Of a stretch of DNA of 64,000 bases, positions 6,107-57,560 are shown one piece after another; positions within the stretch are counted from its first letter, which is position 1, and each line of letters starts with the position of its first letter. Under the pieces are notes generated by a model, which saw only the letters and a program-made list of their open reading frames with translations, was not told where the DNA came from and did not search any database. The stretch lies in sequence record LC494302.1. One strand, written 5' to 3'. The position numbers and the translations under genes are program-made. The DNA comes from Escherichia phage SP27.

Positions 6107-8770
6107 ATGGCAGGAGATCTACTCTCACCTGGCGTTTCCATTTCAGTAACTGATGAAAGTATGAGTACCGCTGCTGCTCCTGGCACTGTACCACTATTTG
6201 TAATCGCTACTGCTGAAGACAAACTTGTCCCAGGAAGCAGTGCAATTGCTGCGGGAACTACTAAAGCAAACGCTGGAAAACTACAGCTTCTAACATCACA
6301 AAAAAGCTCACTTGATACCTATGGTACACCAATTTTTCAAATGAATAACGGTTCTGTTGTTCAAGGTGATGAACTAAACGAATATGGCCTACATGCAGTA
6401 TATTCTTATCTAGGCATTACTAACCGTGCATATGTAATTCGTGCTGATATCGATCTAGCACAACTAGCACCAAGTGCTGAAGCACCAACTGGCCCAGTAT
6501 CCAATGGTACTTTGTGGTTTGATACCGCACAATCACAAGTAGAAGCGTATGTAGCGAAGAAAGATAGTCCAAGCAGTTTTTATGATTGGCAACTTAAGCC
6601 AGTAACTATTGTAAGTGCTGAAGAAGTTGAAGATGTAAGTCTAGTAGGTTTAAATGTTGATGATTTAGTTCTACGTTACAAACCAAGCAATGGTCAGATG
6701 CTAATGTATAAACGTTCTGCTTCTGGGCTAGTGCAAATGGAAACTTATCTATCACCAATTAACAAAGTTCCAGTTGGCTCAACTGTAGAAAAAGGTAACA
6801 TTTGGATTCGTGATGGTTACACCCAAAATGGTTCAAACTATTTTGGTACTCGTTTTGTTATTAAACGTTATGCATCCCTAACTCAAGTTTGGAATATTGT
6901 ACCAGCATATACTGGTAATTCATTCCAAGAAATTGAAGCGAAAAGTGGTGTACTAAACAATAGTTATATCGCATCTCGTTTTGATGAAGATAGTAAGAGT
7001 TTCTCTTTCTATATTCAAAGTGCAAAACTAACAACAATTAGTGCTCCTGCTTTGCCACTTGGTGAAACTATTATTGAACAAGCAGGTGCTGATAGTTATA
7101 TGACTTTTGTTTATTTGAATAAATCAGTTAAAGTACTAGCAGTTCCACAAGGCGGTGTTATTAATACCCAAACTATCATCAATAATCTAAATGCAAATGT
7201 TGAAATTATTAACGATGGTTTTAAATTTAAACGTGAAACTAATGGTGGTTTAGTTGTTTCCAATACAAAAGGTTACAGTTTCAAAATCACACAAAGTGGT
7301 GATGATATTTTTGCTGAATCTGAACTACAAAAACTAACAGTAGATAGTAACAACTACTCTCTAATTAACGTGAATAACTTCCGTGTTAGTTATTCAGTAC
7401 CACGTAGTGTAGCAAAAGAAGGAACTCTCTGGTATGATTTCGGGAACTCCGATAATCTAACTGTAACTATGTATGTTGCTGATGTTGCTAATGATGAATG
7501 GGATCTAGTACAAGAAGAAAACAAATATGTACAAGTTGATGAACCAGCGGCTGACCGTTTAATTTGGGTTTGTCCTTTATCCCAAGGCATTGATGGTTAT
7601 GATTTCTATCGTAACGTTGATGGTGAATGGGTTAAACTTGACAGTACTGATCAAAGTACACTAAATGGTATGATTTTCCAAGACTTTAATTTCCCAAGCC
7701 AAGTTCCTGCTGCGGCATTGTATCAAAATGGTATGCTTGCAGTTGACCTAGGTAACACTGAAGGTGTTGTTAAGAAAATGGTTAATGGTCAATGGGAAGT
7801 TGTTAGTGGTGTAAGTCTTGATGGTGCTGGCCTATTTGGTCGTGCTGCACAACGTCAACTAGTAGTTGAAGCACTAGCTGCTGTTATTATTGGTAATGAT
7901 GACATTCGTTCTGAATTTATTGATTTTAACCTAATTTGTGTACCTGGTTACGTTGAAACACTTGATGAATGTGTAACTTTAAACACTGATCGTAAAGAAA
8001 CTGCATTTATTGTTACTGACGTTCCAGCACGTTTGAATCCAACTGGAAACGGTAGTGCTGTACAACAATGGGCTACTAATGCTAACAATGCACCAAGCAA
8101 CGGTTCAGTTGGTCGTACAACTGCTTATGATTATGCTGCTCAGTATATGGGTTGGTGTCTAAGTACTAACGTTGATGGTGAAGAAGTTGCAGTTCCTGGT
8201 AGTACTATTGCAATGCGTACATATGCATACAGTGATAGTGTTAGTTATGTATGGTATCCACCTGCTGGTACAACTCGTGGTGTTGTAACAAACGCTGCAA
8301 GTACTGGTTTTATCAACAGCGAAGGTGAATATCAACCAGTAGTATACAACCAAGGTCAACGTGACGTTATGTATACTAACAACATTAACCCAATTGCAAT
8401 GCGTCCTAACCGTGGTTTGCTTGTTTATGGAGATAAAACTCTATCTGCTAATCAAACTTCTGCACTAAGTCGTGTTAACGTTGCTCGTTTAGTTGTTTAT
8501 ATTCGTCGTCAACTAGAAATTATTTCCGAACCATTCCTATTCCGTTTGAATACTCCAAGTACTCGTCAGGAATTTAGTGGTGTAGTTAATAGCTTCTTGG
8601 CTGAAATTGTTCAACAACAGGGTCTTTATAACTTCGCAGTGGTTTGTGATGAAAGTAACAACACCGCAGAGCGTATTGACCGTAATGAACTTTGGATGGA
8701 TATTGCAATTCAACCAACTAAGAGTATTAACTTCATTTACGTACCAATCCGTATCGAGAAAACTCAATAA
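6107..8770 (+). CDS. Contractile tail sheath protein (T4 gp18 family, extended to 887 aa)
   Basis: C-terminus VARLVVYIRRQLE…FAVVCDESNNTAERIDRNELWMDIAIQPTKSINFIYV parallels the recalled T4 gp18 RVVCDTTNNTPSVIDRNEF…IQPARSINYI. Confidence 0.9.
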   Translation: MAGDLLSPGVSISVTDESMSTAAAPGTVPLFVIATAEDKLVPGSSAIAAGTTKANAGKLQLLTSQKSSLDTYGTPIFQMNNGSVVQGDELNEYGLHAVYSYLGITNRAYVIRADIDLAQLAPSAEAPTGPVSNGTLWFDTAQSQVEAYVAKKDSPSSFYDWQLKPVTIVSAEEVEDVSLVGLNVDDLVLRYKPSNGQMLMYKRSASGLVQMETYLSPINKVPVGSTVEKGNIWIRDGYTQNGSNYFGTRFVIKRYASLTQVWNIVPAYTGNSFQEIEAKSGVLNNSYIASRFDEDSKSFSFYIQSAKLTTISAPALPLGETIIEQAGADSYMTFVYLNKSVKVLAVPQGGVINTQTIINNLNANVEIINDGFKFKRETNGGLVVSNTKGYSFKITQSGDDIFAESELQKLTVDSNNYSLINVNNFRVSYSVPRSVAKEGTLWYDFGNSDNLTVTMYVADVANDEWDLVQEENKYVQVDEPAADRLIWVCPLSQGIDGYDFYRNVDGEWVKLDSTDQSTLNGMIFQDFNFPSQVPAAALYQNGMLAVDLGNTEGVVKKMVNGQWEVVSGVSLDGAGLFGRAAQRQLVVEALAAVIIGNDDIRSEFIDFNLICVPGYVETLDECVTLNTDRKETAFIVTDVPARLNPTGNGSAVQQWATNANNAPSNGSVGRTTAYDYAAQYMGWCLSTNVDGEEVAVPGSTIAMRTYAYSDSVSYVWYPPAGTTRGVVTNAASTGFINSEGEYQPVVYNQGQRDVMYTNNINPIAMRPNRGLLVYGDKTLSANQTSALSRVNVARLVVYIRRQLEIISEPFLFRLNTPSTRQEFSGVVNSFLAEIVQQQGLYNFAVVCDESNNTAERIDRNELWMDIAIQPTKSINFIYVPIRIEKTQ

Positions 8771-9165: not shown

Positions 9166-9852
9166 ATGGCTACAATGCTTGATCGATATGGCGTACCGCT
9201 CGCTGGCGGTGGTCGTATCTCTATGAAACAACCAAAAGCAAAATACAAATTTCGTGTTATTTTCTTTGGTTTTGGTACTAATGATGATGGTAATATGATT
9301 ACACTAGACACCAATACAGTTGGGGCAGTATCTGTATCACATGAAAATGTTACTGTTCATAGTTACAACAGTTCTGCACACTATAAAGGTAAGTACACTT
9401 GGGATACAATTGATGTTGCTTTCCGTGACTCAGTAGGTAATGCTTCTGCTAAAGCACTATACAACCAAATGCGTAAAGAATTCAACTACTACAGTCAAGA
9501 ATCTCGCATGACAGATTCACAATTTAAATTTGAAATGTGGATTCAAGAGCTTGATGGTTCTAATAGTGAAAATACAACAAACTTGTTTGAAGGAACATTG
9601 AGTACTTGGGTATGTCAAGGTTGCTTTATTGAATCCAGCAACTTTGGTGATTGGGATTATTCCTCAAGTGAAGCACAAGTTATTTCAATGACTGTTCAAC
9701 CAGATGGTTGTGCTAAATTGGGTCCAAATGGCGAAGCGTTCGGTGATGAAGTTAGTGGCTTCGGTAATCCATCAACTGCTACCTCTATTTCTGGTGCACA
9801 AACTAATATTAGTAGTACTACTCTACCAGATAGTAACTTCTACGAAAATTAA
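9166..9852 (+). CDS. Tail tube protein (paralog 1)
   Basis: Directly downstream of the sheath gene; YGVPLAGGGRISMKQPKAKYKFRVIFFGFG is shared with the next gene. Confidence 0.55.
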   Translation: MATMLDRYGVPLAGGGRISMKQPKAKYKFRVIFFGFGTNDDGNMITLDTNTVGAVSVSHENVTVHSYNSSAHYKGKYTWDTIDVAFRDSVGNASAKALYNQMRKEFNYYSQESRMTDSQFKFEMWIQELDGSNSENTTNLFEGTLSTWVCQGCFIESSNFGDWDYSSSEAQVISMTVQPDGCAKLGPNGEAFGDEVSGFGNPSTATSISGAQTNISSTTLPDSNFYEN

Positions 9853-9873
9853 TTTTATTTAAACTTAATATAT

Positions 9874-9903
9874 AGCCTCGAATCTATTCGGGGCTTTTTT
9901 TAT
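9874..9903 (+). terminator. Rho-independent terminator
   Basis: AGCCTCGAA-TCTA-TTCGGGGCT hairpin followed by T7. Confidence 0.55.
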
Positions 9904-9946
9904 GCTAAATAAAGTATAATGCCTTATAAAATAAAAAGAGGTTGCT

Positions 9947-10723
9947 ATGGCAAATAACATGATTAATAAATATGGCGTTCCTTTACCATCGGGGCGTAAT
10001 CGTTCAATGCTACAACCGAAAGCAAAATACAAGTTTCGTGTTATTGTGTATAATTTCGGTACTGATATAGATGAACGTGATCACATCGCATTAGATGTTG
10101 ATAAAATTGATAGACCTACTGTAACATTTAGTACTCATAAACTATATCAATTTACTACTAATACTTCCTATATAGGTAGTCATGATTGGGAACCAATTAC
10201 AATATCTATCCGTGATTCAGTTGGTAATGCATCAGCAAAAGCATTATCACGACAATTACAAAAACAACTTGACTTTCAACGTAGAATAACTTCCAGAAAT
10301 GACCAAGATTATGGTTCTTATAAATTTGGTTTGGTTATACAGATGTTGAGTGGACGTAACTCAGATGATACACTAGGAAATCTAGGAAGAGATACTCTAG
10401 TAGATGCTGCAACTGCTGCAACAAATAATTCTGGCTTAGTAAATGCAGTAGATCAATTTATTGGTGGTTCTTCATATAACAGTGCTGGTGTTATGGAATA
10501 CTTTGTTTTAACCGGATGTGTTATTCAAAACATATCATACGATTCATTAGATTATAGCTCAAGTTCTCCAGTTGAAATGGTAGTTACTATCAAACCAGAT
10601 AATTGTATACAATTTGATAATATTGAAGAAATGTATAGTACCAGAATTAATTCACTTTTACCTGAAAATGTCAATCAAGGTTTAGATATCATTGATCGTG
10701 TTTTTGGTAGTGTAGGATTTTAA
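9947..10723 (+). CDS. Tail tube protein (paralog 2)
   Basis: YGVPLPSGRNRSMLQPKAKYKFRVIVYNFG parallels the previous gene; RBS AAGAGG. Confidence 0.55.
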   Translation: MANNMINKYGVPLPSGRNRSMLQPKAKYKFRVIVYNFGTDIDERDHIALDVDKIDRPTVTFSTHKLYQFTTNTSYIGSHDWEPITISIRDSVGNASAKALSRQLQKQLDFQRRITSRNDQDYGSYKFGLVIQMLSGRNSDDTLGNLGRDTLVDAATAATNNSGLVNAVDQFIGGSSYNSAGVMEYFVLTGCVIQNISYDSLDYSSSSPVEMVVTIKPDNCIQFDNIEEMYSTRINSLLPENVNQGLDIIDRVFGSVGF

Positions 10724-10734
10724 GGAGATAATGA

Positions 10735-12842
<2,108 letters not shown>

Positions 12843-12869
12843 CTTAAACGACCTTATGGAGTTATTAAA

Positions 12870-13406
12870 ATGAATAGATTACAACAAATCCTAACTGAAA
12901 AGAAACCAGTTTATGAATACCGAGTTAAGTTTGCAGTTGAACCAACACCTGAGCAACTTAGTAAAGTAACACAGCGACTAATGGATCGCTATGATGCGTT
13001 TGAAATTGGAGCACTAAAGAAAACAATTTTTATGGAAAAACCATTAGATTTCTATGAATTAGATTGTGGTGAAATTTGGATGTTTGACTTTAAATGTCAT
13101 CGTGGCGTTCAATCAAATGTACTAATGTATGAAATTGGCAATTTACTAAGCATGACAGAAGCATTGATTCGTGTTCGTAGTAAAGATGAACCTCGTCAAA
13201 TTGAAATGACTGATTTGGAAGATGATATCGATTTTGATGATGTTGATGAACCAGTTATTGGAGTGGATTTTGGTAAACCAGAAGACAGTTATGACTTAGC
13301 TGGACAACAACGTGCAAACACTGCCGTTGATGATGCAATTGAAGCATCGAAAAAAGACAATAAATACTCTCAATATATGAGTGCTGGTTTTGGTAAAAAG
13401 GATTAA
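12870..13406 (+). CDS. Hypothetical protein (178 aa)
   Basis: ORF with RBS; acidic mid-region (DLEDDIDFDDVDEP). Confidence 0.5.
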   Translation: MNRLQQILTEKKPVYEYRVKFAVEPTPEQLSKVTQRLMDRYDAFEIGALKKTIFMEKPLDFYELDCGEIWMFDFKCHRGVQSNVLMYEIGNLLSMTEALIRVRSKDEPRQIEMTDLEDDIDFDDVDEPVIGVDFGKPEDSYDLAGQQRANTAVDDAIEASKKDNKYSQYMSAGFGKKD

Positions 13407-13409
13407 CAC

Positions 13410-13952
13410 ATGAGTATACTTAATGAAATGTTAGATTATGAAGACAATGAGTTAAATGAAGCTCGTCCTTATAGTCGTTCACAAAGTGCAGTTGATAGTG
13501 CAAAAGGAAAAGTAAAAGGCTTTTTTGGTAGTGGACAGATTGAACAAGGTGCACAAGAAGTTGGTGCTGAAGCCAACCGCTTATGGGCAGAGTTTAAACG
13601 TTATGTTGGACGTAAATATGGTAAAGCTCAACCATCAGTACCTTACGCTGATGTGGCACAGTTTTTTAAAGGTAACAATCTTGATATTAAACATTTAGGG
13701 AACAATCCTCGTCGTTCTTTTACACCAAAAGATGTAGGTACTGCTCTATTAAATGCTGCTCGTGATATAATGAATGACTACCGTGACCAACAAGGTGGCG
13801 AAGAAAGTTCAGAATCACAACCATCACAATCGACCTCAACTGAGCAACCAGCACAACAAGAACAACCAAAAGCACAAGGTTCCAGTATCCCTGATGCTCT
13901 ACAAAAATTAAGTCCAGAGCAACGCGACCAACTGTTACGTATGCTTTCTTAA
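13410..13952 (+). CDS. Hypothetical protein with a Q/S/E-rich tail (180 aa)
   Basis: ORF with AAGGAT RBS. Confidence 0.5.
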   Translation: MSILNEMLDYEDNELNEARPYSRSQSAVDSAKGKVKGFFGSGQIEQGAQEVGAEANRLWAEFKRYVGRKYGKAQPSVPYADVAQFFKGNNLDIKHLGNNPRRSFTPKDVGTALLNAARDIMNDYRDQQGGEESSESQPSQSTSTEQPAQQEQPKAQGSSIPDALQKLSPEQRDQLLRMLS

Positions 13953-13965
13953 GGAGAATCAACAC

Positions 13966-15483
13966 ATGGATAATTTTTTCAGTACTGAAACTACCACAGT
14001 TCCTAATGGATATGTATATACGTCACATACTGGTGCAAAATATGTATTTCTTGAAGGATTCTGGTTCAATGACAATAATATGTTAATGGTAGACCCTAGA
14101 AAATACCCATCCATGTACGCAAGTGCTCGACAACAGATTGTCGAGCACAATCTAGCTTCAAATGAATATAAGATTGGTAACAAATATATTGTTGAAGGTA
14201 AAGAGTGTACATTTATTGGTGAAAACCGTTTCAATTCAAAAGATGGAATTCTATTAACTGAAAGTGAATTCATCACTGAATTAATGGCAGATGATCATCG
14301 AGTATATAATGTTTCTAAAGAAACACTACAAAAAGAATGGAATGCATTAAAATTTTACATTCTTCCACCATATGCTGATGATATATCAATTCCAGCAGGT
14401 ATGGAAGTAAGTGGTTTTAAATTTGTGCCAAAGAATCACCGTTTTGTTGATATGAAATCAGGACGAGCAGTTGATCCAGCAATGACCCGTAAACTATCAG
14501 ATGAAGGTATGCGTATTGCTCGTCAGTTAGCTTCTAAAAATAAACTAATTCCAATCAAATCAACCTTAGTTCAAGGCAATACACGTTGTGAGTGGAATGG
14601 TAAAGAATTTTGTGATAATGATGGTAATGTAGTAATTCCAGAACAAAATGCACATGCAATTATTAATGCATATCAGCAATTTGTTAAGAATAACCCAAGT
14701 GATTTTCCTACATTAACGGGTGAACAAGAACATAGTGAGCAACGTTTTGGTTCAGGTGAAAAGCCACATAAAGCTTCACACCCTGCTAAACAGCCAGTAT
14801 TTGCAACTAAAGAATCAATTAATGAAGCAGATGAAGAAATTGAAGAATTTGAAAGCATTACTGTTCCTGACGGTTATAGAATGACTTCTTCTAAAGGAAA
14901 AACATACGCTAAGAAAAATAACTTGTGGTATGATATCGAAAGTAAAAAGCAACTTAACACAAGTGCTTCTAAAAGTGTTGAACGAGCAGCACAGCGTGAT
15001 ATTTTCCGTCATAACAATTCCGGTGCTATGAAAATCGGTACAAAAGTTAAATCCAAACAAGGCAAAGAATATTCGTATGTTGGTGGTGACAGATTCATTA
15101 GTGCTGATGGTAAGTTTATACCAAAAGCAACTGCTGCTAAATTACTTGCCAAATATGAACAAGATAAAGAAGTTAAAAGTGATGAAACACCTGAAGTAGA
15201 CTCTGGTACTGAGCAAATTCAATCAAAAGAAGAACCTAAGAAAGAACCAGAATCTGAACAAAAACCAGACGAAGTTTCTGAACCAGAAACTAAATCTGAA
15301 ACAATTGCTGGTGATGATGTACAATCATTAGCTTCTAAAATTAAAGAGTCACCTTATGCTAAAAAAATCACAGTACTACTAACTCGTGGTGATGAGGTTT
15401 CTCTACTTGCTGCTGACATTTTACTTTCAGGTAAAAAGGATGAAACAGTGCAAATTTTAAAATCATTAAATAATAATGATTGA
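13966..15483 (+). CDS. Hypothetical protein with two internal repeats (505 aa)
   Basis: TTVPNGYVYTSHTGAKY… repeats as ITVPDGYRMTSSKGKTY…; RBS AAGGAGA. Confidence 0.55.
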   Translation: MDNFFSTETTTVPNGYVYTSHTGAKYVFLEGFWFNDNNMLMVDPRKYPSMYASARQQIVEHNLASNEYKIGNKYIVEGKECTFIGENRFNSKDGILLTESEFITELMADDHRVYNVSKETLQKEWNALKFYILPPYADDISIPAGMEVSGFKFVPKNHRFVDMKSGRAVDPAMTRKLSDEGMRIARQLASKNKLIPIKSTLVQGNTRCEWNGKEFCDNDGNVVIPEQNAHAIINAYQQFVKNNPSDFPTLTGEQEHSEQRFGSGEKPHKASHPAKQPVFATKESINEADEEIEEFESITVPDGYRMTSSKGKTYAKKNNLWYDIESKKQLNTSASKSVERAAQRDIFRHNNSGAMKIGTKVKSKQGKEYSYVGGDRFISADGKFIPKATAAKLLAKYEQDKEVKSDETPEVDSGTEQIQSKEEPKKEPESEQKPDEVSEPETKSETIAGDDVQSLASKIKESPYAKKITVLLTRGDEVSLLAADILLSGKKDETVQILKSLNNND

Positions 15484-15505
15484 TAACTAAAAGGATTTAT
15501 TTAAA

Positions 15506-16486
15506 ATGGCTAAAAAAATTAATGAAGCACAAGTTAAAATCGATATCGCAGGTTTAGAATCTGATGATTTGGAAACTCTATCACGTATGTTAGCTCTTGC
15601 TGGTCAAGCTGAACGTCAAGACCCAGTAGTTGCCGCTCCAGTACCATCTATGGGGTCTATGACTCCATCTCTTCCACCTATTGCTCCACTAGATCTCGAT
15701 TCTATTGGTGCTGAAGAAGAAATTGGTGGAATTGAAACTTCAGTTGAAGACCCACTAGCAGCGGCAGTTGATGATCTTTCCGCTGATGTTGGTGATTTTG
15801 GTGCTGACACAGATGAAGTTAGTATGGATGCTGAATTTTCAGAACCAGGTGTAGAAGGTGAAGAAGATTTTTCTCTTGACCTTAGTGGTCAACCTCAACT
15901 AGAATCAGTTGAAGAAGACGATGAGGAAGAAGAAGAAATTATTGAAGAAGAATTCGATTTTAGTCGTATGCTATCTCTTGCTGGTATTAACGAAGAAGAA
16001 GACGAAGATTTTTCAGTAGAGGGTAATCCTGCTACCGATAAAGAAATGAAAGATACCCAATTTCTACCAGATCTAAGTATCTCTGAAGATGAAGAACCAT
16101 CTAACAGTACTGATTATGGTCCATATGATACAGAAGCTGATGCCGTTCGTGATGGTCAACTAAAGACTAATGGTGTTGAAGGTGACCATTTTGTTGTAAT
16201 TGCAAAAGGCAATCAATTTTATTGGAGACGTGTTGTAGATGAAGATCTTGACAATCGTCCAGAACCTGAGTATTATGATAATGAAGGGAACGAAAATCGT
16301 GTTCATAAATTTGAACCAAAATTCCCAGGCACTGCATTAGGAGATAACCCACTAAATGTTAATGAAAGTGAAGAAGATGATTCACCTGAAGGTAACATTG
16401 ACTTGGAAGATGATTCTGATGAAGAAGTAGAAGATATTTTTGAAAGTCTCCAAGAAAAATACAAGAAATTTTTAGGAGACAAATAA
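15506..16486 (+). CDS. Hyper-acidic protein (D/E-rich; candidate DNA mimic or scaffold/internal protein)
   Basis: Long D/E runs (EEDDEEEEEIIEEEFDF) and a repeated SRMLALAG / SRMLSLAG motif. Confidence 0.55.
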   Translation: MAKKINEAQVKIDIAGLESDDLETLSRMLALAGQAERQDPVVAAPVPSMGSMTPSLPPIAPLDLDSIGAEEEIGGIETSVEDPLAAAVDDLSADVGDFGADTDEVSMDAEFSEPGVEGEEDFSLDLSGQPQLESVEEDDEEEEEIIEEEFDFSRMLSLAGINEEEDEDFSVEGNPATDKEMKDTQFLPDLSISEDEEPSNSTDYGPYDTEADAVRDGQLKTNGVEGDHFVVIAKGNQFYWRRVVDEDLDNRPEPEYYDNEGNENRVHKFEPKFPGTALGDNPLNVNESEEDDSPEGNIDLEDDSDEEVEDIFESLQEKYKKFLGDK

Positions 16487-16487
16487 T

Positions 16488-16883
16488 ATGCAATATAATT
16501 ATCGTGAACTAGTTGAAGCGTTAGACGAAATTACCGGAAGAGATGAAGACGAAAGTTTTTCAGTTGAAGTTGAATCCGATGTTGTAGCAGTTGATGTTCT
16601 TAAGGATATTACCAAATGTCTTATTGATATTGTTGATAAGATTAAATCTGGTGAAGACCAAAAAGAAATTGTAGATAAACTACAAAAAGCCTGTGACATT
16701 TTGTCTGACATTCGATATAATGATGAAAGTACTGAAGTTGCTGATGAAGAAGTGTTGGAAGCCATTGCAGGTTGTTTTGGAACTGAAGGTATGGGACCAA
16801 CAATTGACAAAGAAGGCGTACAACACTATAATGAGCCTGGTGCACCATCATATGCTGCACGTCAAGGTTTTGTTGGAGACTAA
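16488..16883 (+). CDS. Acidic hypothetical protein (131 aa)
   Basis: ORF with RBS GGAGAC; overlaps the upstream stop. Confidence 0.5.
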   Translation: MQYNYRELVEALDEITGRDEDESFSVEVESDVVAVDVLKDITKCLIDIVDKIKSGEDQKEIVDKLQKACDILSDIRYNDESTEVADEEVLEAIAGCFGTEGMGPTIDKEGVQHYNEPGAPSYAARQGFVGD

Positions 16884-16886
16884 TAT

Positions 16887-17267
16887 ATGTTTCCAGAACC
16901 ATCACATAACAGTACTGAATATCAAAATAATGTACTTTCCAAAGTTAGGGAAGTACATGAATCAGATTCAGAAATAACAGACCGTATGCTTCTGATGTCA
17001 ATTTTTGAAAATTTCAGAACTGGCGGTGGTTTACGTCTTAGCAAGTTTGGGTATGGAATTTGTAAAGAAAATAATCTTTATGAATTTACAAAAATCCCCT
17101 TGCAAAGAGAATTTAAAAGTTCTATAATGTTTACATCACTTGACAGAATATGTACTTCACCTTATTATGTTGAAGGTCAGTACATATATCTGACAGATGC
17201 AATGATAATAACTGAATTAACATTGTGTTGTGACGATTTTAAACAGTTATTTTCTATTCATATGTAA
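16887..17267 (+). CDS. Hypothetical protein (126 aa)
   Basis: ORF with RBS GGAGAC. Confidence 0.45.
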   Translation: MFPEPSHNSTEYQNNVLSKVREVHESDSEITDRMLLMSIFENFRTGGGLRLSKFGYGICKENNLYEFTKIPLQREFKSSIMFTSLDRICTSPYYVEGQYIYLTDAMIITELTLCCDDFKQLFSIHM

Positions 17268-17291
17268 GAAAAAATGAATTAAAAATAAATG

Positions 17292-17319
17292 TTGACAAGA
17301 TAGAATGATGTGATACAAT
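17292..17319 (+). promoter_or_regulatory. Sigma70-like promoter (TTGACA-16-TACAAT), diverged first copy of the array
   Basis: TTGACAAGATAGAATGATGTGATACAAT. Confidence 0.5.
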
Positions 17320-17386
17320 AAGCATCAGACATAAAGTTTTCAAGCGACACAAGATGTGAGTTTGAAAAAAAAAAGAAAAAAAGTGA

Positions 17387-17414
17387 TTGACAAGTTGAAA
17401 CGATGTGATATAAT
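17387..17414 (+). promoter_or_regulatory. Strong sigma70-like promoter (repeat copy 1)
   Basis: TTGACA 17387-17392, 16-nt spacer, extended -10 TGATATAAT; upstream A-tract resembles an UP element. Confidence 0.55.
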
Positions 17415-17480
17415 GTTCACATCAAGACAGCAAAGAGATTTACCTTTTAAACACACGGAAAAAAAAAAGAAAAAAAGTGA

Positions 17481-17508
17481 TTGACAAGTTGAAACGATGT
17501 GATATAAT
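17481..17508 (+). promoter_or_regulatory. Strong sigma70-like promoter (repeat copy 2)
   Basis: Identical to copy 1, 94 bp downstream. Confidence 0.55.
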
Positions 17509-17569
17509 GTTCACATCAAGACAGCAAAGAGATTTACCTTTTAAACACACGGATGATTCATGAAGTAAC

Positions 17570-17617
17570 AAAGGAACTGATAAGTTAAATTATTTTAACA
17601 CAGTTCCTTTACTTTTG
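17570..17617 (+). terminator. Hairpin plus U-tract between the promoter array and the proximal promoter (terminator or attenuator-like)
   Basis: AAAGGAACTG-(21-nt loop)-CAGTTCCTTT followed by ACTTTTG. Confidence 0.35.
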
Positions 17618-17636
17618 CCCACGGATTGGCTATAAT
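17608..17636 (+). promoter_or_regulatory. Sigma70-like promoter proximal to the AAA+ gene (TTTACT-17-TATAAT)
   Basis: TTTACTTTTGCCCACGGATTGGCTATAAT about 40 nt upstream of ATG 17678. Confidence 0.45.
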
Positions 17637-17677
17637 AGAAACTTAAACGATTTTATCCAACAAAAGGAAATATATAC

Positions 17678-19003
17678 ATGACTACTCAAAACGATATCCT
17701 GAACGTTAAACTGACTCCAAAGAAAGCTAAAGAAGCAATGGCACTAGCTGACATGATTCAAGATAGCCTGATGATTTGGGGTAGCCCAGGTATCGGTAAG
17801 TCTGCAATCGCTCGTCAATACGCTGATGAAAATTACCCACTGCGTAAAGATAACGTAGCTAAAATCGAGTTCATGAAACAACAAATCGAAGCTGACCCTG
17901 AAAATGCTGATCAGCTACGCCGTGAACTGGCTGCATTTGAAGCAAAACTAATCGACCAAGATACTAACTTTATCGATTTCCGTTTGTCTCAAATCGAACC
18001 AAGTGACCTTCGCGGTATTCCAGTACCAGAGAAGCTTTTCCGTAAAACTGACGGTTCTCTTCTGAAAGAATCTGAGCTTGCCGAAGCAAAAGATTATGTA
18101 GCTGAAACTGCGGTAGTATGGGCTGCACCTAAAGTTCTGAAATTGTCCGAAGATTGGAAAGGTGTTATTCTGTTTGACGAAATTAACTCTGCAATGCCTA
18201 TTGTTCAGGCAGCGTCTTATCAGCTAATCCTCGACCGTTGTGTTGGTGAGATGAAGCTACCTAAGACTGCACTGATTCTTGCAGCAGGTAACCGTGAAAC
18301 TGATGGCGGTGTAACTTTCTCTCTTGCTACACCACTGCGTGACCGTATGACTCACATTGAGATGATTCCTTATCATCAAGATTGGATTAACGATTATGCG
18401 ATTGCAAAACGTTTGAACCCAGCAACTGTTGCGTTCATCAACAACACTGGTTCTAAGTACTTTAACACACTTAGTCCACAAGATCCTTCTCACAGTGGTG
18501 GTACTTCTCCACGTTCATGGGAAGCAGTAGCACGCTACGAAGATCTCAAGAAAACTAAGACAATTGATAAAGAAGTGTTCCGTGCAATGATTGCTGGTCG
18601 TGTTGGTGAAGGTGTTGCAACTGAATACATTGAGTACGTTGAGAACGTTGCTAAACTACCAGATACTATGTCTATTCTGTCTGGTGAAATCAAAGAAATC
18701 GACGCAACGCTGGATATTTCTGCGAACTACTTTATCACTCTGAACTTGGTTTATAAAATTATCGACCTGTTCAATGAGAAGCAAGAACAACGTCTACCAG
18801 TGGAAGAATGGGGTAAACTGTGTAACAACTTCATCACCTTCCTAGACCATAACTTCTCTGCAACTCAAGCAGAACTGGCAGTACTGGCAATTCGTACCAT
18901 CACGCTTCATAAGGTTGCGATTTCCATTAAAGATGTACCAGCGTTTAAAGATTTCATCGCTAAGTACTCTGAACTTGTACGTAAAGCACGCTCTCTTGGC
19001 TAA
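17678..19003 (+). CDS. MoxR-like AAA+ ATPase (CobS-like)
   Basis: Walker A GSPGIGKS, Walker B VILFDEINSA, MoxR-type FRLSQIEPSDLRG segment; CTG/CGT-rich codon usage unlike neighbouring genes. Confidence 0.8.
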   Translation: MTTQNDILNVKLTPKKAKEAMALADMIQDSLMIWGSPGIGKSAIARQYADENYPLRKDNVAKIEFMKQQIEADPENADQLRRELAAFEAKLIDQDTNFIDFRLSQIEPSDLRGIPVPEKLFRKTDGSLLKESELAEAKDYVAETAVVWAAPKVLKLSEDWKGVILFDEINSAMPIVQAASYQLILDRCVGEMKLPKTALILAAGNRETDGGVTFSLATPLRDRMTHIEMIPYHQDWINDYAIAKRLNPATVAFINNTGSKYFNTLSPQDPSHSGGTSPRSWEAVARYEDLKKTKTIDKEVFRAMIAGRVGEGVATEYIEYVENVAKLPDTMSILSGEIKEIDATLDISANYFITLNLVYKIIDLFNEKQEQRLPVEEWGKLCNNFITFLDHNFSATQAELAVLAIRTITLHKVAISIKDVPAFKDFIAKYSELVRKARSLG

Positions 19004-19025
19004 TTAACAAAGAGTTGTTGACAAG

Positions 19026-19056
19026 AAGGATGCCTAATGGTATCCTTCTTTTATCT
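19026..19056 (+). terminator. Rho-independent terminator
   Basis: GAAGGATGCC-TAAT-GGTATCCTTC then TTTTAT. Confidence 0.5.
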
Positions 19057-19077
19057 TAACTAAACGAGGAAATATAC

Positions 19078-20502
19078 ATGTCAGATAACAAATCTACTTC
19101 CAGATTCAATGAAGTATCTCCGGCACTCCAGAAAGAATGTCAAGATCGTCTGGTTCTGGCTCGTACATCTTTGATGTTAACTGCACCATTCTTTGGTGTA
19201 CTCGCTTCACGTTTACGTCCAGTTCCTAATAATACATGGTGTCGTACTCTAGCAGTTGATGGTAAACATCTATTCTACAACGTAGAATTTGTAATGGGTA
19301 TTCAAGACCCATCTAAAAAGAAAGAATATGAAGAAGCTATTCGTGAAAAGCATCCTGAAGTTACAGACGAACAATTAAAAGAAATGACTGAAGGTTTGAC
19401 TGATGAAAACCTTATTGCTGTAATTTGTCATGAAATTCTACACTGTGCTTACGATCACTTCCTTCGTCGTGGTATGCGTGATCCACAACGTTATAACCGT
19501 GCAGCGGATTATGCCATTAACCAAATCATCGTTCGTGAGAAAATTGGAAAAATCCAAAGTTCATGGTTGTATGATAAAAAATATGAAGGTATGACCGCAG
19601 AAGAGATTTACATTCTTCTTGAAGAAGAAGAACAAAAAGAAGATGGTGAAGGTGAAGGTCAACCACAAAGTGGCGGCGGTGAAGGTGAAGGTAAAAATCG
19701 CGGTACTTTTGGTGATATTAAAGATGGTAAGGGTAAACCAAAAGGTACTACCATTGACCAGCATGACGTTCCACAAGAAGGTCAAGAAGGTGGTTCAAGT
19801 GAACAGCAAAAACGTGATTATATGGATGATTTCAAAACAGCAATGATGAATGCTGCACGTGCAGGTGGTACACCAGCAGAAATCGCTCGTATGATTAACA
19901 ACTTTAAAGAACCAAAGATTGACTGGCGTTCAAAACTTCAACGTACACTTCGTAGTTGGTTGAAGTCTGATGCAACGTATCAAAGTCCTTCTCGTCGTTC
20001 ATGGGGTGCTGGTTTTGGTTCTAATGGTTCATTCTATGGTAATCCAATTTACCCAGGGATGAAACCAGATGATGATATTGATATTGCGATTGCACTAGAT
20101 GCTTCTGGGTCTATTTCTGAAGATATGCTTCGTGATTTCATTAGTGAAGTTCTTGGCATCACTAAACAATTCAAACAGTTTAAGATTCGTATCATGACTT
20201 TTGATACTGAAGTTTATACTGTAAAGGATTACAAAACTGGCGAAGAACGTAAGATTCTGGAATATCCAGTAAAAGGTGGTGGTGGTACTGACTTTGAAGC
20301 AGTATGGGTTCATATGAAGAACGACAACTACAAGCCTAAACAGCTTGTAATGTTTACTGATGGTGAACCGTGGCAGTCATGGGGTGATCCAAACTACTGT
20401 AAAACACTGTTCGTGATTCACAGTAACCCAAATAAAGTTGCACCATTTGGTGAGACTGTACACTACGAATATGAAGCTGATAAAAAGCGTCAACGTAGTT
20501 AA
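19078..20502 (+). CDS. vWA-domain protein with an N-terminal HExxH metallopeptidase-like motif (DUF2201/CobT-like partner of the MoxR ATPase)
   Basis: HEILH in ICHEILHCAYDH; vWA MIDAS motif DIAIALDASGSIS; Gly/Glu-rich linker. Confidence 0.75.
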   Translation: MSDNKSTSRFNEVSPALQKECQDRLVLARTSLMLTAPFFGVLASRLRPVPNNTWCRTLAVDGKHLFYNVEFVMGIQDPSKKKEYEEAIREKHPEVTDEQLKEMTEGLTDENLIAVICHEILHCAYDHFLRRGMRDPQRYNRAADYAINQIIVREKIGKIQSSWLYDKKYEGMTAEEIYILLEEEEQKEDGEGEGQPQSGGGEGEGKNRGTFGDIKDGKGKPKGTTIDQHDVPQEGQEGGSSEQQKRDYMDDFKTAMMNAARAGGTPAEIARMINNFKEPKIDWRSKLQRTLRSWLKSDATYQSPSRRSWGAGFGSNGSFYGNPIYPGMKPDDDIDIAIALDASGSISEDMLRDFISEVLGITKQFKQFKIRIMTFDTEVYTVKDYKTGEERKILEYPVKGGGGTDFEAVWVHMKNDNYKPKQLVMFTDGEPWQSWGDPNYCKTLFVIHSNPNKVAPFGETVHYEYEADKKRQRS

Positions 20503-20512
20503 GTACTAAATA

Positions 20513-20545
20513 AAGAGAACGGAATTTTCCGTTCTCTTCTTTTAT
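20513..20545 (+). terminator. Rho-independent terminator
   Basis: AGAGAACGG-AATTTT-CCGTTCTCT then TCTTTTAT. Confidence 0.6.
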
Positions 20546-20547
20546 AA

Positions 20548-20577
20548 GTGGGACAACTTATAAAAATATGATATAAT
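20548..20577 (+). promoter_or_regulatory. Sigma70-like promoter (GTGGGACA-16-TATAAT), second copy of the motif at 1440
   Basis: AAGTGGGACAACTTATAAAAATATGATATAAT. Confidence 0.4.
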
Positions 20578-20611
20578 AGTTAATGTACCAATATACATGG
20601 AGAGTATTAAA

Positions 20612-41620: not shown

Positions 41621-43909
41621 ATGAATCTTACTCAATTGTTCAAAAAAAGCGACGAACTGGCAACATCTCTAGGTCATACATTCTTGACTATTGACCACGT
41701 AAGTGCCACAGTACTGACTATTGATAGCATCAAGAACGTATTTGAAGATATGAACATTGATGCAGACAAACTGCACAACCGCCTGATGAACTATCTTAAA
41801 AATACAACAGTTCCACATGCACCAAAAAGTGTTAAAGATGAAGACGCGAATCGAACTTCACTTCTAGTGAATCGCGTTGTACATGAGCTTTCTAAAAAAT
41901 CAGTTATTGAACAACTAAAAAGTGATGATTTTTCGATTGATGCATATTTTGTTCTATTCGAATGTCTGTCTTTCCCTAACACAGCACTAGAAGCTGCGTT
42001 AAAAGAAGAAGGTGTTAGCTGTACTGAAGCTGCACGTGCATTACAGAAACACGTTGAGTCACTTGATAAAGGTATCAACTTACAAAGTATTAATGACGAA
42101 CCGATTGGAGATAAAAAAGTGGCCCAACAGCAGCAATCATCTAAACAAAAAGGTTTGGAAGACTATACAACGAATCTAACTGCTCTTGCAAAAGAAGGCA
42201 AACTAGATCCTATGATTGGTCGCCAGAAAGAATTGTCTGCATTGATTGAGACTCTTGCTCGCAAAACCAAAAAGAATGCTATTCTCACTGGTGAAGCTGG
42301 TGTAGGTAAAACACAAATCATCGACGGGCTTGCACAAGCTATTGCTGATGGTAACGTACCTGAACACCTGAAAGACGTTGAAATTCTTTCACTAAATGTT
42401 GGTGCATTGACTGCTGGTACTAAGTATCGTGGTGAATTTGAAGAACGCATCGACAATTTGCTAAAAGAACTAAAGAAACGTGAAAATACTATTGTTTTCA
42501 TTGATGAAATTCATATTATGGTTGGGGCTGGTTCCGCAAGTAATGGTTCTATGGACATGAGCAATATGCTTAAGCCAGCACTTTCACGTGGTGAGATTCG
42601 TGTAATTGGTGCAACAACATATGATGAATATCGTAAAAATATCGAGAAAGATAGTGCATTAACTCGTCGTTTTATGAAAATTGACGTAGTTGAGCCGACA
42701 ATTGATGAAACTCGTGCAATTGTTAATGGTTTGAAACCAACGTATGAAAAATTCCATAATGTTGAGTTCACATCTGATGCAATGGATGCTGTAATTTCTC
42801 TCAGTGATAAATTCCTGAAGAATAAGCACTTCCCAGATAAAGCAATTGATCTAATGGATGCTGCTGCGGCTAAAGTTCGTTCACGTGACAACAATAGTAA
42901 GCTAATTACTGCCAATTTGATTCAAGAAGTTGTTGCTGGTATTGCCAATTTGGATATCAACGTGGTTGCATGTACTGAAAGTGATCGTATGCGTAATCTA
43001 CCAGATGCACTACGCTCACGTGTATACGGTCAAGAGGAAGCTATTCAAAAATTAGTTGATAACGTGATGGTAGCTCGTGCAGGACTGCGTGACAAATCTA
43101 GTGTTCAGGGTGCATTTATGTTTGTTGGACCATCTGGTACTGGTAAAACAGAAATTACCAAAGCATTAGCAGACGCAACTGGTGCGGAACTCATTCGCTT
43201 TGATATGTCAGAATTTTCTCAAGAACATACTGTTTCTAAACTAATTGGTTCACCTCCAGGTTATGTTGGTCATGATTCTGGTAACGGTTTACTGTTGGAT
43301 AAAATTGAGCAGTTCCCTAATGCAGTACTGTTACTTGATGAAATTGAAAAAGCAGATCGTAAAGTACTACTAACCTTCCTACAGGTTTTGGATGAAGGTC
43401 GTCTGACTGGTTCTCAAGGTAAAACTGTATATTTTAATAACGTAACTGTTATTATGACTACAAACCTTGGTGCGGCTGATTCAACAAAGCGTAGCATTGG
43501 TATGAGCGGTAGTGACACTGCACAGGACAAGGCAATTAAAGCATTCTTGCCACCAGAGTTTATTAACCGTATTGATAGTATCGTTACGTTTAAAGACCTA
43601 AGCAGTGAAGCTATTGACAGCATCATTGATAAGTTCATGGGTGGTTTGAATGAACAAGTCAAAGACCGTAATGTTAAAGTTACATTAACAAAAGCTGCAC
43701 GTGAATGGCTTGCGAAAAATGGGGTAAAAGTTGGTATGGGTGCACGTCCAATGAAACGTACCATTGAACAAAACATTCGTGTGCCACTAGCTAAAGAAAT
43801 GTTGTGTGGTTCACTTGTGAATGGTGGTAACATTACATTTGATGTTATTGATGGTAAAATCGGTATTAAGCCGAAACGTACCAAAGCTGTAGATAAAGCA
43901 CTAGTATAA
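41621..43909 (+). CDS. clpA: ClpA-like AAA+ unfoldase (Clp protease ATP-binding subunit homolog)
   Basis: Two AAA+ modules ([24 protein letters not shown]), [17 protein letters not shown] loop at the ClpA IGL position; ATG 41621 with AGGAGA RBS. Confidence 0.85.
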
Positions 43910-43911
43910 AA

Positions 43912-43947
43912 AAAGAAAAGGAGAGCATAATGCTCTCCTTTTTTTAT
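43912..43947. terminator. Bidirectional rho-independent terminator between clpA-like and the giant gene
   Basis: A-rich-GGAGAGCA-TAA-TGCTCTCC-TTTTTTTATT. Confidence 0.65.
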
Positions 43948-57459: not shown

Positions 57460-57525
57460 AATTTATTCCTTTAAATCAGTAAAGTACTAGTTCAGTACTG
57501 GGAATTATATATAGAAATATTTATT

Positions 57526-57557
57526 CAAAAAGAAAAGCACTCCGAAGAGTGCTTTTG
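57526..57557 (-). terminator. Rho-independent terminator (minus strand) after the gp25-like gene
   Basis: AAAGCACTC-CGAA-GAGTGCTTT with an A-rich plus-strand tract upstream. Confidence 0.5.
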
Positions 57558-57560
57558 TAA

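Follow-up and report, generated by a model that had tools for sequence, protein, structure and literature searches.

Two hyper-acidic virion proteins encoded near the tail genes of RaK2-like jumbo phages are candidate head-internal proteins

In phage T4, a capsid-targeting sequence of ~10 residues sends internal proteins into the prohead core (PMC9026906; PMC7697877). The cleavage motif of the T4 prohead protease gp21 is L/I-X-E, and cutting often occurs at a Glu-Ala bond (PMC9026906). The T4 core proteins gp22, gp67 and gp68 are themselves cleaved, and their fragments mostly leave the head (PMC9026906).

The inner-body proteins of phiKZ-type phages form the PF12699 family (phiKZ gp93/95/97 and Goslar gp58, following the definition in the Goslar preprint). 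They are folded paralogues present in hundreds to thousands of copies. Bubblegram imaging also shows a phiKZ-like axial inner body in phages 121Q (PMC5646251) and phAPEC6, where it is a rod of 91 x 18 nm (PMC7247149). The authors of the phAPEC6 study found no phiKZ homologues, and could suggest only RCC1-like proteins. Dense acidity is a feature of T7 Ocr and ArdA. These proteins (116-170 aa) fold compactly and hold their carboxylates in a fixed, B-DNA-like array. Ocr is expressed early and is not packaged.

The stretch of DNA analyzed here (the window) comprises 64,000 nucleotides of Escherichia phage SP27 (LC494302.1). It belongs to an Asteriusvirus, a RaK2-like or 121Q-type jumbo myovirus, and is near-identical to Escherichia phage 121Q; against 121Q gp557-564 the identity is 100% save for one 95-bp indel. 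Two adjacent ORFs of 326 and 131 codons are the counterparts of gp560 and gp561 (Table 1). In 121Q, both carry the annotation 'structural protein'. A sequence-only reading of the window had placed these ORFs downstream of the tail genes, and the positions of the sheath gene and three tube-like genes bear this out. Between the tube-like genes and the 326-aa ORF lie the gp4-like gene and four others, three annotated as structural and one as hypothetical.

The gene order is conserved. The sheath gene is followed by three tube genes, a gp4-like head-completion gene, four to five further genes, the acidic protein, the small acidic protein and a protein of ~120 aa. This order persists in divergent metagenomic relatives, in which an ATPase gene comes next where the contig reaches that far. 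The gp560 and gp561 counterparts, the tube paralogues and the head-completion gene form one co-directional block free of terminators. The window has fewer copies of the T4 late-promoter box TATAAATA than expected (one versus 10.3), so this box does not serve as the late promoter here. An Rfam scan of positions 16000-18000, covering a possible small RNA behind the promoter array, returned only sub-threshold noise.

Table 1. Features of the locus, in window coordinates; a slash within a peptide marks a candidate cleavage point.
Feature	Position	Strand	Basis or remark
Sheath gene	6107-8770		
Three tube-like genes	9166-11829		
T4 gp4-like head-completion gene	11829-12257		
Four upstream genes of a common conserved module, counterparts of 121Q gp556, gp557, gp558 and gp559	12288..15483	+	annotation, synteny
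CDS, 326 aa, counterpart of 121Q gp560 (phrog_15988 'virion structural protein')	15506..16486	+	ORF; tblastn 100% identity to gp560; PHROG E 1e-142
I5-N6-E7/A8, candidate prohead-protease site closing a 7-residue N-terminal propeptide, similar to the T4 capsid-targeting sequence	15518..15529	+	conservation
Motif 1, predicted helix, aa 19-35, DDLETLSRMLALAGQAE	15560..15610	+	AF2 pLDDT ~74; most conserved segment of the gp560 family
Acidic region predicted to be intrinsically disordered, aa 38-149, without K or R	15617..15952	+	sliding charge; pLDDT mostly <50
Motif 2, aa 150-164, FDFSRMLSLAGINE, predicted helix with conserved (L/I)-x-E site I161-N162-E163 immediately after it	15953..15997	+	AF2 helix 152-158
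Predicted small beta-alpha-beta-beta domain, ~40 residues, aa 203-242, GPY..EA..DG..TNG.EG..F.V..KGN.FYW.R	16112..16231	+	pLDDT 88-95
Conserved C-terminal predicted helix, aa 308-322, VEDIFESLQEKYKKF	16427..16471	+	AF2 pLDDT ~86
CDS, 131 aa, counterpart of 121Q gp561 (phrog_14971 'virion structural protein'), acidic, predicted helical	16488..16883	+	ORF; PHROG E 3e-60; AF2
L8-V9-E10 followed by A11, candidate prohead-protease site of the 131-aa protein	16509..16517	+	R6, L8 and E10 invariant in 14 homologues, including those of CBB and RaK2
Final gene of the module, gp562 counterpart, 126 aa, hypothetical, non-acidic	16887..17267	+	position kept in all relatives

The acidity of both proteins, described from the sequence alone, is confirmed by their composition and exceeds chance. 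The 326-aa protein contains 43 Asp and 53 Glu residues (29.4%) and only 21 Lys plus Arg, for a net charge of -75 and a pI of 4.05, and includes the acidic run VEEDDEEEEEIIEEEF at aa 135-150. In the 131-aa protein, 33 residues (25.2%) are acidic, the net charge is -21 and the pI is 4.10. The 121Q genome has 390 ORFs that are 100 aa or longer; in acidic fraction, the two proteins rank second and fourth among them, ~3.8 and ~2.8 standard deviations above the mean (0.136, standard deviation 0.042). A strong negative net charge is kept throughout the gp560 family, with values from -42 to -87 in 61 homologues.

The 326-aa protein appears from its AlphaFold2 (AF2) model to be a modular polyanion. It is predicted to be mostly disordered (mean pLDDT 59, with 138 residues below 50). 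A [LIVMF]-x-E tripeptide occurs at the N terminus of all 61 gp560 homologues (100%), and E7 and A8 are invariant. Motif 1 lies between this site and the long acidic region, which varies in both length and sequence among homologues, as judged by gaps and low conservation. In distant homologues, the equivalent region is rich in G, M and D. Beyond it is motif 2, whose trailing [LIVMF]-x-E site is kept in 87% of homologues. The two motifs contain the SRML(A/S)LAG repeat that had been pointed out in the sequence-only reading, as SRMLALAG at aa 26-33 and SRMLSLAG at aa 153-160. The repeat is real but weak: a motif-1 profile retrieves motif 2 as its second-best match in the whole proteome, with a domain E value of 0.05. 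Most family members have both copies. The SRMLxLAG pattern was found nowhere else in the phage, either by regular expression over ~2/3 of the 121Q genome or with motif HMMs over the full predicted proteome.

A further acidic linker connects motif 2 to the small domain, in which G205, P206, T221, N222, G223, F229, W240 and R242 are invariant. Foldseek searches against BFVD and PDB returned only family members or nothing, and the domain has no known fold relatives. In one homologue (P0026) the small domain is triplicated in tandem. The C-terminal helix conserves I311, E313, S314 and Y319. In total, the protein has five conserved [LIVMF]-x-E sites, at residues 7, 163, 194, 246 and 313. The 131-aa protein is modeled with helices at residues 5-16, 30-53 and 58-74 (mean pLDDT 62); its predicted helical hairpin has a pLDDT of ~75 and no Foldseek match in PDB.

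The N-terminal tripeptides are suggestive of processing by a prohead protease, and the same genome encodes such an enzyme outside the window. 121Q gp601 matches Peptidase_S77 (PF03420, E 1e-20), the family of gp21-type prohead proteases, and the major capsid protein matches PF07068 (Gp23). The latter carries L-T-E/S at residues 41-43, which fits its reported processing from 42.2 to 37 kDa. The head module also includes a gp22-like scaffold, gp602, and an acidic core-like protein, gp600. This other hyper-acidic virion protein is encoded between the portal and protease genes, is 31% acidic with a net charge of -54, and starts with LLQE/A. An (L/I)-x-E tripeptide that starts at residues 2-8 is present in 9.1% of 606 predicted proteins. 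It is found in all five head-module proteins gp599-603 versus none of 21 tail, baseplate and fibre proteins, and in five of the six genes gp556-561 (binomial P 3e-5, for a short motif and a test framed post hoc). In the counterparts of gp556-558, the N-terminal (L/I/V)-x-E is conserved, being kept in CBB, RaK2 and two metagenomic relatives.

Both proteins are conserved, packaged virion components in relatives. Mass spectrometry of purified virions detected phAPEC6 gp267c, which differs from the 326-aa protein by one residue, with one peptide (4.9% coverage). In CBB, the two proteins correspond to CBB_213 (five peptides, 18.9%) and CBB_214 (one peptide, 15.4%), and in RaK2 to gp050 (one peptide, 5.3%) and gp051 (two peptides, 18.7%). 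Virion mass spectrometry is also on record for orthologues of gp557-559. The virion proteomes of GAP32 and JP4 do not report the acidic proteins; the JP4 supplement lists proteins only. Low coverage is expected for the 326-aa protein because aa 38-154 form a single tryptic peptide of 117 residues.

The published tables in the CBB and RaK2 supplements give coverage figures without peptide lists, and the CBB figures have no unique decomposition into peptides. The phAPEC6 result fits the sole 16-aa tryptic peptide of the 326-aa protein, aa 12-27, which accounts for both the single peptide and the 4.9% coverage. For the 5.3% coverage in RaK2, the same position is one of three possible 16-aa peptides and the only one that is fully tryptic. 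Because aa 12-27 is downstream of the putative E7/A8 site, these figures are compatible with cleavage there, although they do not prove it.

The best explanation of these observations, to which we give about an even chance, is that both proteins are head-internal, that recruitment brings them into the prohead, where they are processed, and that they are candidates for the inner body of 121Q and phAPEC6. We infer that the proteins reside in the head and not in the tail, that they are actually cleaved, that they have an inner-body role and that they are ejected. Recruitment into the prohead core would occur through the N-terminal or helical motifs, as it does for T4 internal proteins through the capsid-targeting sequence, and the gp21-type (S77) protease would trim the proteins at (L/I)-x-E sites. 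At least some of the trimmed material would stay in the head once it is filled with DNA. A disordered polyanion would be strongly repelled by DNA and may segregate from the packed genome, and could therefore be one of the components of the axial 'inner body'. At infection, the polyanion would exit the capsid together with the DNA. Several observations argue against this explanation: the genes adjoin those for the tail sheath and tube, the GAP32 and JP4 proteomes lack reports of both proteins, and neither protein is homologous to the internal or core proteins of T4 or the inner-body proteins of phiKZ.

The gene neighborhood invites another explanation, in which the proteins belong to the virion outside the head interior, in the neck, a portal plug, the tail lumen or the surface, and the N-terminal (L/I)-x-E is coincidental or caps a helix. 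Such a location would be consistent with the genes sharing a terminator-free block with those for the tail tube paralogues and for head completion. However, the motif is confined to the head-module side of the comparison made above between head-module and recognised tail, baseplate and fibre proteins, and it is invariant over deep divergence. Also, a polyanion that is ~60% disordered is an unlikely building block for an ordered tail. We therefore regard a position outside the head interior as unlikely.

Perhaps, instead, the 326-aa protein acts only in assembly, as a prohead core or scaffold spacer that helps to build or size the very large T=28 prohead, is cut at several (L/I/V)-x-E sites, and is then expelled with only traces left in virions. 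Its five conserved sites would suit this role, as would the single peptides from phAPEC6 and RaK2, the lack of any from GAP32 and JP4, and the precedent of T4 gp22, gp67 and gp68, whose fragments mostly leave the head (PMC9026906). In contrast, purified virions from three phages contain orthologues of the 326-aa protein, represented in CBB by five peptides, and the missing tryptic sites account for the low coverage. The head module already has the dedicated scaffold gp602 and the acidic core-like gp600, and profile searches show no similarity to the scaffold. A purely assembly-related role thus seems quite improbable. The sequence-only reading had proposed a capsid-internal or scaffold protein. 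Its internal part agrees with the detection in virions of three relatives, the (L/I)-x-E N termini, the S77 protease and the inner body, whereas a completely removed scaffold is contradicted by the peptides in mature virions and does not fit the presence of a separate gp22-like scaffold gene. A possible mimicry of the scaffold was also considered. Visual inspection gives a gap-free alignment of motif 1 (DDLETLSRMLALAG) with the C termini of gp22-like scaffolds of CBB, SE_PL, K64-1 and 121Q. The resemblance was rejected, as an HMM of scaffold C termini leaves the 326-aa protein outside its top 20 in the proteome, and the HMMs built from motifs 1 and 2 recover no scaffold.

The charge density had also been read as typical of DNA-mimic anti-restriction proteins. 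The proteins might accordingly be packaged polyanionic decoys or DNA mimics that are injected with the genome, bind defence or nucleoid proteins of the host such as type I restriction enzymes, RecBCD or H-NS-like proteins, and so shield the incoming DNA. Packaged anti-restriction proteins do exist, as exemplified by T4 IPI* and P1 Dar. The extreme negative charge is family-wide, relatives package the proteins in virions, and the 131-aa protein is predicted to be helical and is within the size range of known mimics. Like Ocr and ArdA, the proteins have dense Asp and Glu and a very low pI. Yet no Pfam match to Ocr (PF08684), ArdA (PF07275) or others was found, nor any sequence match in PDB or any Foldseek match outside the family in PDB and BFVD. 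The carboxylates of Ocr and ArdA are fixed, whereas the 326-aa protein, a virion component, has acidic segments that are predicted to be disordered and that are indel-rich and poorly conserved; its conserved elements are non-acidic helices and the small domain. The DNA-mimic reading thus finds no positive support in sequence, fold or conservation, and we consider it quite improbable. A decoy role could nonetheless be compatible with head-internal proteins, as a later function after ejection.

Head-internal proteins of this kind would resemble T4 IPI-III, Alt, gp67 and gp68 in having a short N-terminal segment that ends in (L/I)-x-E, here at a Glu-Ala bond. As in T4, the genome has an S77 protease and a head module similar to gp20/21/22/23, and the proteins are present in mature virions; extra internal (L/I)-x-E sites are likewise a feature of T4 core proteins. 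The likeness is one of working principle and not of family membership, because there is no sequence or profile similarity. T4 IPI-III are basic and folded, whereas the 326-aa protein is a polyanion, predicted to be mostly disordered, with a repeated helical motif. Also unlike the situation in T4, the genes are outside the head module, next to tail and head-completion genes, and both cleavage and head location are putative.

The likeness to the phiKZ inner-body proteins is that both sets are packaged in virions, lineage-specific, and possibly processed by a protease and ejected. They are not homologous: Pfam scans of the two proteins and of 61 family members gave no match to PF12699. The prohead protease here is a further difference, being T4-like S77. 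The gp600 family (orthologues CBB_254, RaK2 ORF091 and JP4_335) shares with the 326-aa protein its hyper-acidity (26-31% Asp plus Glu, net charge -40 to -57), its presence in virions, an N terminus of the E/A type (LLQE/A) and its restriction to the same lineage. Unlike the 326-aa protein, to which it has no detectable similarity, it is encoded in the canonical head module, where T4 has gp67/gp68, and its C-terminal tail is basic.

A more specific proposal, which we think rather improbable, is that the 326-aa family, possibly with the 131-aa and gp600 families, is the building material of the inner body in RaK2/121Q-type phages. The material would be a disordered, hyper-acidic polyelectrolyte unrelated to PF12699 that charge repulsion demixes from the packed DNA into an axial rod. 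As a rough estimate, a rod of 91 x 18 nm, if solid, would hold ~19 MDa. Scaffold-like helices, each followed by a protease site, would target the polyelectrolyte for loading; it would be expelled either before the genome or along with it, maybe also serving as a polyanionic decoy against DNA-binding defences of the host.

The common signature of N-terminal (L/I)-x-E, virion presence, extreme charge and predicted disorder provides a short list of candidates for the RaK2-like inner body, so that its make-up and the loading of proteins in these phages become directly testable. In this jumbo lineage, a conserved gene module that lies apart from the canonical head module probably follows the same T4 logic of capsid targeting and processing. 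If the targeting helices suffice for packaging, they could serve to load foreign proteins into a capsid of very large size. In other respects, the finding is an ordinary one, concerning two annotated virion proteins.

The gp560 family has ~100 homologues, all of them on contigs of RaK2-like jumbo phages, and a search of 1.84 billion proteins yielded 83 representatives. Pfam and PHROG link the two proteins only to the lineage-specific phrog_15988 and phrog_14971, and a Pfam scan of both (E<=0.01) gave no relevant family. Among 61 gp560-family members, a scan at E<=0.1 produced only weak STAS_2 matches, in 12 of the 61 with a best E of 0.0012, which were judged to be noise. A sequence-profile search of PDB found nothing below E 0.2, and the best Foldseek match of the gp560 model in PDB has an E value of 3. 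With the gp560 model, Foldseek gave only family members or non-significant matches in BFVD and PDB, and the outcome for the gp561 model in PDB was the same. Ten of the distant profile matches (P0149-P0182) were scanned against Pfam and gave no informative domain. In two of these distant matches, the N-terminal module is internal and is joined to a different C-terminal domain.

The two acidic genes (table below) adjoin one another, and hyper-acidity beyond chance is a property of both products. The 326-aa protein contains 43 Asp and 53 Glu residues, with 13 Lys and 8 Arg (29.4% acidic, net charge -75, pI 4.05). It includes the acidic run VEEDDEEEEEIIEEEF at aa 135-150, and no Lys or Arg occurs between aa 38 and aa 154. 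The corresponding values for the 131-aa protein are 25.2% acidic residues, net charge -21 and pI 4.10. As background, the genome of the closest phage was reassembled in full and ORFs were called crudely; the 390 that reach 100 aa have a mean acidic fraction of 0.136 (sd 0.042), and the two proteins take 2nd and 4th place. The sequence-only reading had placed hyper-acidic ORFs at 15506-16883, which is exact, and the doubled SRML(A/S)LAG motif that it reported is present in the 326-aa protein as SRMLALAG at aa 26-33 (motif 1) and SRMLSLAG at aa 153-160 (motif 2). It also correctly located the genes downstream of the tail genes; a gp4-like gene and the gp556-gp559 counterparts intervene.

Coordinates of the acidic ORFs and surrounding genes in the window
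Feature	Coordinates	Strand	Remark
Sheath	6107-8770		
Three tube-like genes	9166-11829		
T4 gp4-like head completion	11829-12257		
gp556 to gp562 counterparts	12288-17267		
ORF, 326 aa	15506-16486	+	ORF listing
ORF, 131 aa	16488-16883	+	ORF listing; adjoins 326-aa ORF
MoxR-type AAA ATPase	17678-19003		beyond promoter-rich spacer
DUF2201 metallopeptidase/VWA protein	19078-20502		

By megablast, window positions 13000-20600 are 100% identical to Escherichia phage 121Q (KM507819), a RaK2-like jumbo myovirus of the genus Asteriusvirus (348.5 kb), and 99.4-100% identical to G17, Sharanji, phAPEC6, PBECO4, JP4 and others. The counterparts of the two ORFs, 121Q gp560 and gp561, are labelled 'structural protein', and the PHROG matches (phrog_15988, E 1e-142, and phrog_14971, E 3e-60, respectively) are both 'virion structural protein'; a Pfam scan of the two proteins gave no matches. 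Both were thus previously annotated as virion proteins of unknown function. The window is distinct from 121Q itself, because it carries a 95-bp tandem duplication and lacks gp584. The latter, a 765-bp gene for a 'protein associated with group I intron', sits in 121Q between a baseplate wedge gene and the baseplate gene that follows it; it is absent from the window at 57460-57560, where the offset between the two sequences shifts by 737 bp.

Several neighboring genes merit comment. The 505-aa gp559 counterpart (13966-15483) has an internal duplication, with VPNGYVYTSHTGAKY... close to the N-terminus and VPDGYRMTSSKGKTY... around aa 290, a similar domain after each copy, and K/E/S-rich linkers between copies. 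Two names derived from PHROG/RefSeq look wrong: the 180-aa protein at 13410-13952 is called 'Hsp70 heat shock protein' without any Hsp70 domain, and the 474-aa VWA protein is called 'HNH endonuclease', where Pfam finds DUF2201_N metallopeptidase and VWA-like domains.

Virion proteomics, the check proposed along with the original observation, can be drawn from published data, which place 326-aa orthologues in phAPEC6, CBB and RaK2 particles and 131-aa orthologues in those of CBB and RaK2. In phAPEC6, gp267c, which differs from the 326-aa protein by one residue, is listed with 1 unique peptide (4.9% coverage), and the 131-aa orthologue gp266c is absent from the list. The CBB proteins are CBB_213 (5 peptides, 18.9%) and CBB_214 (1 peptide, 15.4%), and those of RaK2 are gp050 (1 peptide, 5.3%) and gp051 (2 peptides, 18.7%). 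Neither orthologue is reported in the GAP32 and JP4 virion proteomes. Coverage of 326-aa orthologues is poor because aa 38-154 form a single 117-residue tryptic peptide. In the phAPEC6 protein, trypsin would release just one 16-residue peptide, aa 12-27, which accounts for exactly 4.9%; the homologous 16-mer of RaK2 gp050 gives exactly 5.3%, although two missed-cleavage peptides fit too. We infer that the conserved N-terminal region is present in mature particles, and a completely removed scaffold is therefore unlikely. Two downstream products also occur in virions despite apparent early promoters ahead of their genes: the MoxR-type ATPase orthologue in phAPEC6 (6 peptides) and the VWA/DUF2201 orthologue in JP4 (1 peptide).

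The N-termini of both acidic proteins are suggestive of T4-type targeting and processing. The T4 protease gp21 cuts after the Glu of L/I-X-E, classically at a Glu-Ala bond, and T4 internal proteins enter the prohead core by means of an N-terminal capsid-targeting sequence of ~10 residues that is later removed (PMC9026906; PMC7697877). 121Q has a T4-type head module comprising portal gp598, gp599, gp600, protease gp601 (Peptidase_S77, E 1e-20), scaffold gp602 and major capsid protein gp603 (Gp23 family). The 326-aa protein begins MAKKINE↓A (arrow, putative protease cut); [LIVMF]-x-E is present in 61 of 61 homologues, with E7 and A8 invariant. In the 131-aa protein, which starts MQYNYRELVE↓A, the residues R6, L8 and E10 are invariant. 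The likeness to T4 comprises the S77 protease, the gp23-type capsid protein, the N-terminal L/I-x-E and Glu-Ala at the candidate site.

Similar N-terminal motifs occur nearby in gp556 (IDE↓A), gp557 (LTE) and gp558 (LNE, LNE↓A), and are kept in CBB, RaK2 and metagenomic relatives. They also occur in all five head-module proteins inspected (gp599 IFE↓S, gp600 LQE↓A, gp601 IRE, gp602 LKE↓S, gp603 LNE↓S), and in none of 21 recognized neck, sheath, tube, baseplate and fibre proteins. Among 606 predicted proteins, 9.1% have (L/I)-x-E starting at residues 2-8. Five of six proteins in the cluster do so (P = 3e-5 versus this background; Fisher P = 7e-5 versus tail proteins), for a short motif and a test defined only once the sequences had been inspected. 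Also, gp603 has L-T-E↓S at 41-43, where a cut would leave ~37 kDa; the mature 121Q capsid protein is reported to be 37 kDa (PMC5646251).

Roughly 100 homologues of the 326-aa protein were found by tblastn and large protein searches, all in RaK2-like jumbo phages (of enterobacteria, Erwinia, Yersinia, Serratia, Xanthomonas and Vibrio) or similar metagenomic contigs; 1.84 billion representatives, searched exhaustively with a profile, contained only 83 at E<=1e-3. Throughout the 61-sequence alignment, net charge is -42 to -87, and the acidic stretches have many indels and low conservation; the most distant homologues have G/M/D-rich low-complexity sequence in their place. Conserved elements are residues 1-36, the second SRML-type motif, aa 183-282 and the last ~20 residues. 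Further conserved [LIVMF]-x-E sites lie at 161-163 (87%, right after motif 2), 192-194 (90%), 244-246 and 311-313. Because (L/I/M)-x-E-S/E nearly always succeeds motif 2 across the family, each helix motif looks like a candidate targeting element with a processing site behind it.

An AlphaFold2 model built with this alignment averages pLDDT 59, and 138 of its residues fall under 50. Its confident elements are helices at 19-35 (motif 1), 152-158 (motif 2) and 308-322, and a beta-alpha-beta-beta unit at aa 203-242 (pLDDT ~90). This ~40-residue domain is an independent module, because the relative P0026 has three tandem copies. Modules are shuffled within the family: in the metagenomic relatives P0149 and P0151, the N-terminal module is internal, behind an extra ~115-residue domain, and is joined to a different C-terminal domain. 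Foldseek with the 326-aa model returned two family members and nothing else from BFVD, and a best E of 3 from PDB; a sequence-profile search of PDB found no matches. The 131-aa model (mean pLDDT 62) has an N-terminal helix and a helical hairpin (aa 30-74), with no PDB fold matches. The gene neighborhood is kept in CBB and RaK2, and two divergent metagenomic contigs keep the gene order upstream through a ~120-aa gene; one also has the downstream ATPase, and the other stops short of its position.

Two roles had been proposed for the acidic proteins, DNA mimic and capsid internal or scaffold protein. A mimic of the Ocr or ArdA type presents a rigid DNA-like carboxylate array, whereas the acidic parts of the 326-aa protein are predicted to be disordered and seem free to evolve save for composition, which is the opposite. 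Profiles for Ocr, ArdA and other DNA-mimic families match neither protein, nor does any fold, so the mimic proposal found no support. A packaged polyanion might act as a decoy after ejection, a function that we consider improbable. Of the second proposal, the capsid-internal part is favored by detection in virions and by an N-terminal signature of head type, and the fully removed scaffold is not. That both proteins are head-internal and protease-processed is the reading we prefer, at about even odds.

If they are head-internal, an inner body is one possible location. 121Q has a phiKZ-like linear inner body in bubblegram imaging (PMC5646251), and the phAPEC6 one is rod-shaped, measures 91 x 18 nm and follows the portal axis; the authors of the phAPEC6 study found resemblance to phiKZ inner-body proteins in no phAPEC6 protein, and suggested only RCC1-like proteins (PMC7247149). 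PF12699 defines the phiKZ and Goslar inner-body proteins (Goslar preprint), whereas Pfam scans did not find it in the 326-aa or 131-aa protein. Demixing is to be expected of a disordered polyanion and the DNA it is packaged with. Taken with its occurrence in virions and its N-terminus of head type, this makes the 326-aa protein a reasonable candidate for an inner-body component. So is the similarly acidic gp600 family, with 31% acidic residues and net -54, whose members were detected in virions of CBB, RaK2 and JP4. The gp600 gene lies outside the window, between the portal and prohead-protease genes (43880-44728 of the 121Q DNA, L005); the N-terminus reads LLQE↓A, and the protein is conserved and acidic as far as PA5oct-like Pseudomonas phages. 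What this analysis adds is a modular description of the 326-aa protein and an argument that a conserved module beyond the head module may undergo T4-like targeting and processing, and hence a concrete candidate list for the 121Q/phAPEC6 inner body.

The ATPase/VWA pair is probably a separate transcription unit driven by host polymerase, as judged from clustered sigma-70 promoters and their retention in RaK2. On both strands of the 64-kb window, 11 near-consensus sites (at least 11 of 12 positions matched) were found, with 5.3 +/- 2.3 expected. Seven lie on the + strand within 16248-17508, all directed at this pair, and three are perfect (TTGACA-N16/17-TATAAT). Four are within the gp560, gp561 and gp562 counterpart coding sequences, with sites inside the gp560 counterpart lying upstream of the 131-aa ORF; two belong to the duplication absent from 121Q. 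RaK2 retains a perfect promoter in the equivalent spacer, and within its gp051 gene lies an 11-of-12 site at the matching codon position, whose -10 box is a conserved Tyr-Asn codon pair. No terminator-like sites occur between 9895 and 19023.

The 95-bp duplication (~17365-17555, intergenic after the gp562 counterpart) holds a perfect sigma-70 promoter unit. Direct alignment shows one copy in 121Q, and the other closest relatives in the collection apparently have one too, judged by matched-stretch length. A long hairpin (17560-17617; AAAGGAACTG...CAGTTCCTTT, then ACTTTT) separates the promoter array from the ATPase gene and could be a terminator, an attenuator or the place where a short RNA ends; an Rfam scan around it gave only sub-threshold noise. 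The T4 late-promoter box TATAAATA is strongly depleted in the window (1 observed versus 10.3 +/- 3.4 expected), so late transcription in this phage with a T4-like head, which encodes sigma-like factors of its own, must rely on a different signal.
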